Positions 5,501-9,451 are shown, numbered from the stretch's first letter. The stretch: DNA of 64,000 nucleotides from Iphione sp. A-MEVVRFRX5 (GCA_976226885.1 OZ320313.1:106640001-106704000), one strand, 5' to 3'. Translations and numbers: made by a program. The notes: generated from the letters alone by a model not told the origin.

Positions 5501-6692
5501 AGATTGGGACATCCAACTGCCGTACGTTATGGCAGCATATCGGGCAACCCCCCATGGAAGTACTGGTTGTACTCCAAACTGGTTGATGACACAGAGGGAG
5601 ACCACCCTTCCAGTTGAAGCAATGTATGGAGGACCAGAACCCGATGCACAGAACGTGGTGGATTATGCTGCCGAGTTACAGGACCGTACCCAGAGAGCAT
5701 ATCGCCAGGTGGCACAATCGTTGGGTCGGGTAGCGCAGCGTCAAGCAGACTGGTACGACCAACGAACAAGACCCCAACACCTTGAAGAAGGGGAGTGGGT
5801 GTGGCTCTTCCTCCCTCAGAAGAAGGTGGGGAGGTCCCCCAAGCTCGAGAGGTGGTGGACTGGACCCTGGAAGATAGAGAAGAAGTTGTCATCAGTGGTG
5901 TTCAGGATACAAAAAGGAAGATCTACAAAAGTGGTGCATGGAGACCTGCTCAAGAAAGCTCATGGGGTGAGAGAAGCCACCGAAGTTGACCATGTAGGAG
6001 TATTGCGAAAGGAGGAGATCAAACAAGTCCATATGGCTGGGCGTGTTTTGCGGGTTCGCGCACTGCCGCCCCGCTGGTTGACTGGAACCGCGGGGTGCGG
6101 GGAAGAGCGGGATGTGCGCAACGGTGCTGAGAAGAATGAACTAAGCAGGGACGGTGCGGGGAGCGATGCGGGCGAAGTGCGGTCAACAGACTCAACGATG
6201 GTGCGGGGAGTGCGATCCCCTGAAGACTGGCGTGAGACGGACGTGCTGCCGCCGTGCGGAGAATGGTCGAATCAAAAAATTAGCGAAGTTGGGGTGTCGC
6301 CCTCTATCGTGAGCGGGGCGAATCAAGGGAAACTGACGACGTATGCGCCCTCTGTAGGAAGAGTGTCTGTACTACTCGCCCTGGAGAGAAAATTACGAGG
6401 TGAAGGAACACTGCACCGGTTAACTAAGGAAAAAGAGCAATTGGGGCCGCAGAAGAACAAGCAAAGGAAGCCTCTGTACATAGCCCCGACTTGGGACGTC
6501 AGTGCGGGGGAGTGCGACCCAGCAGCGCAGCAAGAAAGACGCGATTCCCCGATTCAGCCGAGAAGCCGAAACGCAGGAGGAGTGACCTTGACCCGGGCAG
6601 CAGTGCGTGGAAAGGTCGGTTCCCCGTGTAAGCCCCGCTGCGTGTCTTGTCGATTTCCTGATTTTTGGCTTGTGCTTCGTGATGGGGTTTAG
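2511..6692 (+). pseudogene. pol: pol (protease, RT, RNase H, integrase) with premature stops and compensating frameshifts
   Basis: Protease [34 protein letters not shown] (TGA 3573-3575 where Arg is conserved), MPFGLCNAP, YLDD; RNase H TDAS, ELLAVV, TDH, NADALSR; integrase VDVLGP, HSDQGRNFES, ERLNRTL. The HHCC region is split over two frames by indels in G-runs (4958-4965, 5046-5051). A further TGA at 2508-2510 lies upstream of the protease. Confidence 0.95.
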
Positions 6693-9451
6693 CCCTAGAG
6701 GCGTGCGAAGAGCGGGAGGCCGGGCGAAACCTAGCCCAGGGCGACGAATCCACGCGCGGGCCCCAGCATCACCTCCCGCCGCTAGGAGGCAGGACCGGTG
6801 CCCCGATCTCATTCCGGTGACGCCGAAGTTCGTCACCCCCGCCGCTAGGAGGTGCAAGAAGAGCCCCGCACTTGTGCAGGGAAACGGCAGTATACCGCGC
6901 TACTGGGATAAAGAAGAGGCCGACGACATGGATGCCCTAATGTGCCGCCTCTGCGACAAGAAGTTTGCGAATCAATACCGCCTAAAAAGGCATGTTGAGG
7001 ATGTACATGGGACCGAGGGGTTCGGACGTCGATGCCCAGACCCCCGCTGTGAGGGGCGAGCCTTCAAACGCCGTGGGGACTTAACAAGGCATCTCCGGCT
7101 GGTCCACCACAATCTGGCGATGGGCCAGAGCATTGAAGTGGAGTAACTGCGCTTCAAGGGACATATGCCCACCTTCGGAAGCCCCCTGCCTCTGCCTAAA
7201 CACCTACAGCATGAATTCGAAGTGCAGAAGGCCGCAGAGGCGAAGAGTAGGAAACGGGAGCTCCACGAATGGCAAGACGAGCAGGAGGCGTGGAGACAGA
7301 GCCTTCAGTCACAGTCTAGCGGAGCTGGGGCATCGCCATCTCAGCCGATTGTCATCGATGAGGAGACAGAAGAGGCCGAGGAAGAAGACGCTCCAGCCGA
7401 ACCGAGCCCCGCGCCCACTGCTCCTACCCAGCCGGGGAAGAAGAGTACCCTCTCGGTGAAGAAGGAAAGTGAGCAGCCCTATGTTTGACCCTTGGCCATC
7501 CGCCGCCCCCCGGCTCAGAAGCTTCCGCCACTGAAGAGGCGACAGGCTACTTCGTCCTCGGACTCGGGCTGGAGCGGCGTCTCCACCCCCTCTTCATCAG
7601 AAGTAACTCCTCCAGTCATGTCACAGAAGAGGAACAAGAGCGGGGGCAAGCGAGGGGTTGTCAAGCGTAGCCGGACAACCACTGAGAAGACTGGAAGGGA
7701 TAGCCCTAAGAGGAGCCCCGCCGCCAAGATGCAACGTCGGCGTTCGTGGTCTGCCGAAGAGGAGCCGGACTTCGATCCGGCGGAGTTCTTGGCTAGTCTT
7801 CAGGACTGGCCCGGGCTGACTGAGCCGGCTCCGACCCCCAAGGGGCAAGAGGAACAGAGTCGCCCATACCCGGACTTTGAAGATATATCTGAAGGTGAGA
7901 CCCAACGTGCAGTAGTGGCCCTCACCATTGCAGAGACTGCGCGGCCATGTGAGTTAGTGGCCAGTAAGTCAGTGATTTTGTCTGGCCAGGGTGGTGCGCC
8001 GCGGCCTGTCGAAGGAAAAGTCCCTTCTGCTGACAAGTCGATTGCAGTTCCCGTAGCTGTTCCTTCCGGGGGCCGCTTGGCTGTTGGCCCTCAGGCTGAG
8101 GATCCAGATGTGGTGGTTGTTGGAGCCTCAGGTGTTGGTGGGTCAATCCCCCCGTCTGGAGACGGGACGACAGCAGCTGTTCCCCCATGTACGGAGGGGG
8201 TGTCGACGGCTCCGCGAGCTACTAGCCCGCCGCCTTCCGGCCCTGACTCACTCGGGGTTGGGCCTGGGCAGAGTGGCGGGTCAATCCCCCCGTCTGGAGA
8301 CGGGACGGCGACTGGTGTCTCCCCGCCTACTGAGGGGACAGACCCCCCGTCTGGAGACGGGATGGCGACCAGTGTCCCCCCACCTACTGAGGGGACAGAC
8401 CCCCCGTCTGGAGACGGGATGGCGACCGAGGTCCCCCCGCCTACCGGCAGGACGACGGCCGGGGTCCCCCCGCCTGCCGGCGGGACGACGTCTGGTCAGG
8501 GCGCTGCCCTGGGCCAGCCGACCGATGTTGCTGCTCCCAGGTTTCACCCCACCGAGCCTCGGCTCACGTTACTGGGGGTGGATCCGATTGATGAGGCCCC
8601 CCCCGTCCGAAGACGGGACGTCAGTGGTCCCGGGTACCTCACGACGAGGAGCACCCACCGAGCCTGGGGATGGCCCCAGTGGAGGAGCTGCTGACAGGAA
8701 GGTCGACCCGGGGTTGACAGAACAGCCGGTCACAACAGCACGTGGCAGAGCGGAGGGGCCCGACCTGGTAGCACGAATGGAGGCGTTCCCCGTGGCTCCT
8801 GGGCCCAGTGACCAGAAACCGTCGGCTCCCTTACAGGTACTGGCGACCGTGGGGCAAGACCAGGAATTGGACTTTGAGAGAGTTGTGCTTCCCCCAGGGC
8901 AGGACTTCGTGGTCGAGGGACCGGAGGACCAAGTCCCCCCGGATAATGGTGCTGCAGGGCCGCAGAGCCAGCGCCCCTCTGCTCAGGTGACGCCCCAGGT
9001 GTCACCACAGAGACCTCGACGCGACTCGTCGTCTGGGATGCCGGCGGTCAGGGTACAGGAGCTGGAGAGCTCAGTCCGGTTCGTAGATGCAGACCGGCCG
9101 GCAGGGGTCGTCACGCCCAAGCTGTTGGTTCTATGGGCAGTGGCGCGACTGATTACACGCACTTCACCTCCGCCCACCCACTGGACTATTCTGAGTGCTT
9201 CGGGACAATCGCGTACCAGGCTCGTTGATAACCATTTCCAAGTGACAATCGACCAAACTGTCCTGTGGCAACATGATGGCCGTGGGGTCCTTCTGCATTT
9301 GAAAGTGTGGTACTACGACCGAGCGGCCAGGTTAGAAGGACTGGTGCCTAGAACGGTGGAGGACACCTGGGAGTACGAGGAGCCTCGAGCGGACCAGCTC
9401 AGGTTGCACATCAGGGAAGTCTTTACTGCTTCGCTCCCTGACGAACAGTAG
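6592..9451 (+). pseudogene. ORF3 of the retrotransposon: two C2H2 zinc fingers, coiled/low-complexity middle, unknown C-terminal domain (two in-frame stops, one frameshift)
   Basis: ORFs 6607-7146, 7165-7488 and 7492-8694 share one frame and are separated only by TAA 7144-7146 and TGA 7486-7488. Coding appears to continue in the 8084-9451 frame after the C8 run at 8597-8604. Fingers: CRLC-x12-HVEDVH and CPDPRC-x13-HLRLVH. Confidence 0.75.
8288..8490 (+). repeat. 57-bp coding tandem repeat in ORF3 (PPSGDG.AT.V.PPTEGTD, about 3 copies)
   Basis: Repeated CCCCCGTCTGGAGACGGGA...CCTACTGAGGGGACAGAC units; a partial extra copy near 8140-8170. Confidence 0.9.

Follow-up and report, generated by a model that had tools for sequence, protein, structure and literature searches.

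VANC21, encoded by a VANDAL transposon of Arabidopsis, recognises a short motif whose copies cluster in the same orientation within that transposon (PMC5735166). Here we describe a Gypsy-type long terminal repeat (LTR) retrotransposon in a 64,000-nucleotide stretch of Iphione sp. A-MEVVRFRX5 DNA (GCA_976226885.1 OZ320313.1:106640001-106704000; the window), whose third gene, open reading frame 3 (ORF3), encodes a protein with two N-terminal C2H2 zinc fingers. VANC21 is its closest working analogue; the likeness of ORF3 to VANC, or to retroviral trans-activators, may be one of function rather than of demonstrated membership in either group. As far as the available text of the VANDAL report goes, VANC resembles ORF3 in being transposon-encoded, in having a one-orientation motif in its own family and in containing a variable region with tandem peptide repeats (PMC5735166). 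Unlike ORF3, VANC comes from a plant DNA transposon and has a demonstrated function, where for ORF3 we infer one; in the same text, the motifs of VANC are spread through the non-coding DNA of its element, in contrast to the GTGCGG motifs described below, which lie in the LTR and the pol tail (PMC5735166). A Pfam scan, limited to Pfam families, found no link between ORF3 and VANC. Foamy-virus Tas and human T-lymphotropic virus Tax are products of accessory genes near the 3′ LTR that activate the LTR, and Tas also activates an internal promoter; both come from vertebrate retroviruses and are not classical C2H2 proteins.

Non-envelope third ORFs of Gypsy-type elements are already published. Since bdelloid rotifer LTR retrotransposons have been reported to carry non-envelope ORF3s for a GDSL esterase and a DEDDy exonuclease (PMC5408684), the premise of an earlier, sequence-only reading of this DNA, that extra ORFs of Gypsy elements are usually env-like, is not supported. 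Like ORF3 here, the rotifer genes are family-specific third ORFs after pol that are not env, and a GDSL-like ORF3 also occurs in L044, one of the loci compared below; unlike ORF3, they encode enzymes or membrane proteins, and the main text of that report contains neither the word zinc nor the word finger (PMC5408684). Another LTR retrotransposon with a nuclear accessory protein is Cer1 of C. elegans, whose expression depends on that protein, CERV; unlike our reading of ORF3, CERV acts on RNA export, and the abstract mentions no C2H2 fingers, the comparison being one of descriptions (PMC10309623). The mdg1 group of Drosophila has Gypsy accessory ORFs as well, with a predicted helix-turn-helix in sORF1, and sORF2 sometimes lying after pol. 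In contrast to ORF3, sORF2 is a membrane fusogen of 63-107 aa and sORF1 a small protein encoded upstream of gag, and the available text describes no long finger-plus-disordered protein (PMC11952523). The finger fold itself is shared with host EGR/Zif268 and CTCF, and the finger 2 helix resembles those of GCG-binding Zif268 fingers; unlike host C2H2 factors, ORF3 has no canonical linker, and its PDB matches are generic (best E-value 3e-7, spread over several fingers) and point to no particular host donor gene.

No description of a C2H2 third gene in Gypsy elements was found in the literature searched, with Repbase, Dfam, GyDB, supplements and subscription journals outside the search. A term search of the available text of PMC13524379, PMC8220671, PMC12440569, PMC6238403, bioRxiv 2022.11.29.518450, PMC2774666 and PMC6338049 was also negative for such a gene. 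This type of accessory third ORF is apparently undescribed, and the GTGCGG arrays reported below are new here.

A C2H2 zinc-finger gene between pol and the 3′ LTR

ORF3 lies between pol and the 3′ LTR on the plus strand. Over positions 6928-8595 its frame contains two stops (at 7144 and 7486), compared with 11 and 28 in the other sense frames; over 8606-9448 the next frame contains none, compared with 9 and 9 in the others. An internal repeat unit is found at 8149, 8287, 8344 and 8401 in the first frame and at 8600 in the second, and because both frames carry it, they are one gene broken near 8600. The gene thus has three breaks in all, the two stops and the frame change, at a density not above that of gag-pol, and an 840-codon frame with just three breaks is far from chance. 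The stop counts and the shared repeat bear out the sequence-only reading in joining these pieces into one third gene. Its length of about 950 codons needs correction: pol ends at 6692, so that the ORF3 frame overlaps the final 100 nt of pol, and position 6592 is merely the edge of the stop-free frame inside pol. Two starts are candidates, an ATG at 6682 that adjoins the pol stop (922 codons) and an ATG at 6928 directly before finger 1 (840 codons). The latter is the likely start, giving about 840 codons, because 16 of 19 related genes have a Met at most 15 codons from the first Cys.

The N-terminus (6928-7143) carries two fingers of the classical pattern (C-x2-4-C ... H-x3-5-H, with an aromatic and Leu core), as first proposed; both match PF00096 (zf-C2H2) above the curated cut-off (29.8 bits vs 25.2, E-value 7e-7). 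The recognition helix is N(-1) Y(+2) R(+3) R(+6) in finger 1 and R(-1) G(+2) D(+3) R(+6) in finger 2. The middle (7147-9058) consists of a charged helix, a basic Ser-rich stretch and Pro/Gly/Thr repeats built of 57-nt and 33-nt units, and is followed by a C-terminal domain of about 130 aa (9059-9451).

ORF3 is not an env, in agreement with the sequence-only reading, because it has no clear membrane helix or signal peptide (best 19-residue hydropathy 1.54 and a hydrophilic N-terminus in a simple scan, not a dedicated predictor). With a single N-glycosylation sequon and two Cys after the fingers, and no env family matched in Pfam, we rejected an envelope gene of the errantivirus ORF3 type. The GDSL/DEDDy class of ORF3 was also rejected: no SGNH or DEDD family was matched by any ORF3 piece, though the same Pfam library found GDSL in L044.

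For the C-terminal domain, which had been left without a name, sequence, profile and structure searches returned no relative. None of 616 candidates was related to it, and nothing in the 79 Gypsy loci described below went beyond an E-value of 0.86. For the finger region, none of 34 candidates (proteins of 305-973 aa only) was a relative, and exact look-up of the ORF3 sequence gave 0 of 5. The one match in a scan of 1.84 billion representatives, to 21 residues of a secreted repeat protein, was dismissed as chance. A language-model search with the C-terminal domain reached at best 0.85, to a bacterial protein and under the trust level. A single-sequence model showed one helix and a beta meander at a mean pLDDT (predicted local distance difference test) of 43.5, a low confidence too weak to use, and a cystatin/NTF2-like fold was discarded, as the best Z of 4.3 among 48,161 chains is not meaningful.

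The gene type recurs in related Gypsy loci and is selected there

We compared ORF3 with 79 Gypsy loci (L001-L079), the best 79 of 286 confirmed stretches from a scan of bacterial genome bins in which a pol alignment was the query; they presumably are host DNA carried in those bins. A strict C2H2 pattern within 1.5 kb after pol was present on the sense strand of 17 of the 79 loci and on the antisense strand of none; with two looser cases, 19 loci were labelled finger-bearing. Pfam supported C2H2 fingers in 11 of the 14 candidates scanned, and one of the remaining three matched BTB at its C-terminus. The usual layout is a Met, one or two fingers, a low-complexity region and a variable end. In six loci, all of one family group in one assembly, the gene is enclosed by an LTR pair, and in 14 of 16 complete elements without fingers the pol-to-LTR distance is only 202-630 nt. 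The gene is therefore not unique to this copy: a similar third gene occupies the same position in related Gypsy loci.

On a quick tree of 90 reverse transcriptase (RT)-RNase H rows (no named reference elements; two loci dropped as too short), all 21 finger-bearing rows, window included, fall inside one 48-row group. Among loci with enough downstream sequence the gene is present in 14 of 16 in this group, and it is present in none of 26 loci outside, which is partly by construction, as the group was drawn around the finger rows. A single origin of the finger-bearing third gene is plausible on this tree, and the comparison supports a real element-borne gene type rather than a one-off capture.

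Selection on the gene type was assessed from the ratio of nonsynonymous to synonymous substitution rates (dN/dS) in ORF3 pairs of relatives. Of 17 pairs, 8 were saturated and 1 was identical; in the 8 that allowed an estimate of dS, the ratio lay at 0.14-0.36. Alignment bias does not affect the three close pairs (92-96% identical, ratio 0.17-0.19) but does affect the distant ones, and the pairs are not independent of one another. Base-contacting residues are retained among sisters with high or saturated dS, in finger 2 of L015, L018 and L023 and in finger 1 of L059, L061 and L064, and 19 of 28 fingers have Arg at +6. These values, measured in the relatives' ORF3s rather than in the family of the window element, are not those of neutral evolution and support purifying selection on the gene type.

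Among 120 listed pol relatives, P0112 alone reads through beyond integrase, where a zinc-finger pair is followed by a charged linker and then a beta-rich tail; an uninterrupted frame joins pol to the finger region in P0112, L047 and L075. P0112 shares an unnamed beta-rich tail domain of about 85 aa with P0111, which has no fingers (0 of 2000 shuffles), and a language-model search with the P0112 tail returned just generic C2H2 clusters, below 0.9. In shuffle tests (81 and 1125 of 2000) and a profile comparison (probability 0.5%), no homology was detected between the C-terminal domain of ORF3 and the tails of P0111 and P0112.

Other third ORFs accompany these loci. The finger-bearing ORF3 of L037 (7326-9089) has a C-terminal BTB_2 domain of the potassium-channel tetramerisation type (E-value 7e-13). 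GDSL/SGNH-like third ORFs occur at L044:3029-3658, L040:5921-6775 and L053:7304-8113, with Pfam support for L044 only and the other two recognised by eye; the GDSL ORF3 class therefore reaches beyond rotifers. In L035 (6894-10067) pol is followed by a 1058-codon ORF with divergent Cys/His clusters and no Pfam match, which may be a degenerate member of the finger class. A 714-codon ORF between pol and LTR in L030 (10842-12983) is env-like, with a basic cleavage site and a C-terminal hydrophobic stretch, and has no Pfam match. The genomes that hold L001-L079, species representatives of bacteria and archaea, contain complete animal-type Gypsy elements, some of them on contigs labelled chromosomes, as probable host contamination.

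GTGCGG arrays match the predicted finger target

The hexamer GTGCGG occurs eight times in the 245-nt 5′ LTR (824-1068), seven times on the plus strand and seven times upstream of a TATA-like box at 947. The shuffle mean is 0.49; none of 2000 shuffles reached the observed count, nor did any of 1000 in a control taking the best of any hexamer. Seven further copies (six on the plus strand; 0 of 200 shuffles) lie upstream of ORF3 in the pol tail and spacer (5991-6927), and the 3′ LTR (10277-10521) has seven. Elsewhere the leader contains 2, gag 0, core pol 1 and ORF3 0, and the 53 kb outside the element contains 7, a number expected by chance. The motif is strand-biased in both the LTR and the pol tail and spacer. 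The CpG observed/expected ratio is 0.9-1.05 in the motif regions, 0.7 in the coding parts and 0.59 outside, with the qualification that GTGCGG itself contains CpG. The window element thus has a one-orientation motif cluster of the VANC type, which was not seen in the six finger-bearing relatives with LTR pairs.

GCG is the site bound by Zif268 fingers that carry R-1/E+3/R+6, and a variant with R-1/D+3/R+6 has been crystallised on it (PMC2709573). Finger 2 of ORF3 is the only one of the 28 fingers with R-1, D+3 and R+6. By the recognition code, the Arg residues at +3 and +6 of finger 1 would read the following GG. Together the fingers are predicted to read GCG-GGN, the core of GTGCGG, and from this agreement the pair would bind the GTGCGG core in the LTR.

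ORF3 as a proposed regulator of its own element

Our preferred reading, which we hold at about even odds, is that ORF3 encodes a self-binding activator or anti-silencing factor of the element's transcription; that it is a self-binding regulator of either sign, repressors included, we consider fairly probable. ORF3 would be an accessory gene typical of one lineage of animal Gypsy elements, and its product would resemble a transcription factor in which C2H2 fingers at the N-terminus precede a long low-complexity stretch and a C-terminal domain that can be exchanged. The fingers would bind the GCGG(G/T) core of GTGCGG, arrayed upstream of the LTR TATA box and of ORF3, and the protein would raise or protect transcription of its own family, by trans-activation or sequence-specific anti-silencing, in a positive loop. 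An activating direction and expression of ORF3 from a separate transcript are what we infer. By eye, an acceptor-like sequence immediately precedes the ATG in four relatives, and three show a TATA-like box; the statistic for the acceptor-like site is weak (3/17 vs 33/953). More tentatively, a broad and undescribed lineage of animal Gypsy elements might encode a C2H2 transcription factor whose fingers change fast, whose effector domains are swapped, and which co-evolves with LTR sites family by family.

Several observations weigh against these proposals. The linker between the fingers is longer than canonical, and two fingers confer modest specificity. Matches between a GC-rich motif and an Arg-rich finger arise rather easily, and GTGCGG resembles the sites of the host GCM, RUNX and Sp/KLF/EGR (GC-box) factors. 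Most of the copies upstream of ORF3 fall within the open pol tail rather than in non-coding sequence. The LTRs of the six finger-bearing relatives with LTR pairs have no enriched hexamer, and among 28 candidate LTR pairs an enriched hexamer was seen only in two loci, both finger-less. A motif common to LTR and spacer is clear only in the window element and weak in one of the six relatives. In seven relatives, the sites predicted by the same code from their fingers showed no clear enrichment (best 13 and 20 of 500 shuffles). No co-variation between fingers and LTR motifs was found in the relatives, and the match comes from one family only. On the tree, support for the 48-row group is not strong (SH-aLRT, the Shimodaira-Hasegawa-like approximate likelihood ratio test, 86), and the finger label needs nine changes.

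The evidence for binding is silent on direction, and a self-binding repressor, with the same DNA target and the opposite sign, would let ORF3 limit the activity or copy number of its own family. BTB plus zinc finger is a common repressor layout, and L037 has it. We nevertheless regard repression as unlikely: of the 14 finger ORFs scanned only one was found to have BTB, the motif copies concentrate upstream of the TATA box, and acidic and Pro-rich low-complexity regions are typical of activators.

We give about the same low probability to a regulator at the RNA level, comparable to CERV or Rev, whose fingers would bind the element's unspliced RNA and promote its export or packaging. Such a nuclear accessory protein exists in CERV of Cer1, made from a spliced mRNA in the available text (PMC10309623), and both the strand bias of the motif and the acceptor-like sequences of four relatives would fit. 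However, seven of the eight LTR motifs stand upstream of the TATA box, as DNA sites would, the helix residues are those of DNA-reading fingers, and the acceptor statistic is weak.

Slightly less probable is an integration-targeting module, an analogue of the chromodomain fused or tethered to integrase. In three relatives (P0112, L047 and L075) pol reads into ORF3 without a stop, which leaves some probability for a targeting role, and the overlap of the window ORF3 frame with the last 100 nt of pol is in its favour. In the same three relatives, however, the fingers are directly preceded by a Met that comes after the usual end-of-integrase motif; stops separate ORF3 from pol in most others, and the motif is enriched in the element, with chance numbers only in the window outside it.

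A shade lower still we place the possibility that the LTR motif serves a host factor and that ORF3 binds something else, host promoters or, through its fingers, protein partners. The relatives without a motif-finger match and the likeness of GTGCGG to host factor sites speak for it, but the only family to have an R/D/R finger also has the GCG-core array, and the same motif also lies upstream of ORF3. Very improbable is that ORF3 is a neutral passenger, a piece of a host zinc-finger gene captured by this copy alone: no sequence relative of the window element's ORF3 was found and the copy has three breaks, but the same position and layout recur in many relatives under purifying selection, the breaks are no denser than in gag-pol, and an 840-codon frame with three of them is far from chance.

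Of the nuclear regulator first proposed, then, a DNA-binding regulator with a candidate LTR target stands as the best reading. C2H2 proteins are known as host tools against transposons; here a transposon carries a C2H2 gene that is selected in relatives and has a plausible target in its own promoter. The proposed self-binding by ORF3 makes the question of how env-less LTR elements stay expressed under host silencing directly testable, since the finger pair is naturally open, the candidate site is a hexamer, and there are natural relatives (L013, L022) with an intact ORF3 and LTRs of their own. Some predicted invertebrate "C2H2 genes", also in host-contaminated bacterial bins, may be retrotransposon genes. 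If a co-evolving lineage exists, it would be a transposon-side zinc-finger counter-system mirroring host zinc-finger defence, and such genes could be a source of host C2H2 genes.

The element and other features of the window

The element is a complete Gypsy-type LTR retrotransposon at 824-10521, in a decayed copy. Its LTR pair (245 nt each, three mismatches, TG...CA ends), a 4-bp target-site duplication, primer-binding site and polypurine tract, the Ty3/Gypsy hallmarks, are all in place, and Pfam matches follow the Gypsy order of gag, protease, RT, RNase H and integrase. A pol match at an E-value of 1e-20 or below was found in 7758 of 8000 scored candidates, with a best identity of 52-53%. On the plus strand, the 5′ LTR has an AATAAA at 1000 and is followed by the primer-binding site (1069-1086), putatively of the tRNA-Leu type, gag with a CCHC knuckle (1179-2412), the pol core of protease, RT, RNase H and integrase (2511-5990), and, after ORF3, the polypurine tract (10264-10276). 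The copy is dead in gag, pol and ORF3 alike: a frame change falls near 1350 in the 5′ part of gag, a stop interrupts RT at 3573, and near 4960-5050 the zinc-binding region of integrase reads garbled (by eye, against relatives). Neither a second copy of the element nor a solo LTR was found within the window.

The pol tail is open to 6692, for more than 230 codons, and is probably translated. Beyond a GPY/F-like motif pol extends for 278 aa; across 116 relatives the median extension is 122 aa, and in the two nearest it is 47 aa.

The window also holds a tyrosine-recombinase retrotransposon of the DIRS/Ngaro type (51954-56568, minus strand) with open gag-like, RT and recombinase frames; its split direct repeats are 100% identical, and it looks young. 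Fragments at 13225-13829 (minus strand) resemble a decayed retroelement RT region without a Pfam match, and an inverted repeat pair (13978-14172 and 15321-15515) lies near them. Copies of a dispersed repeat family, 78-98% alike in their better-matching parts, are found at 22399-23529, 28817-29365 and 48250-48617.

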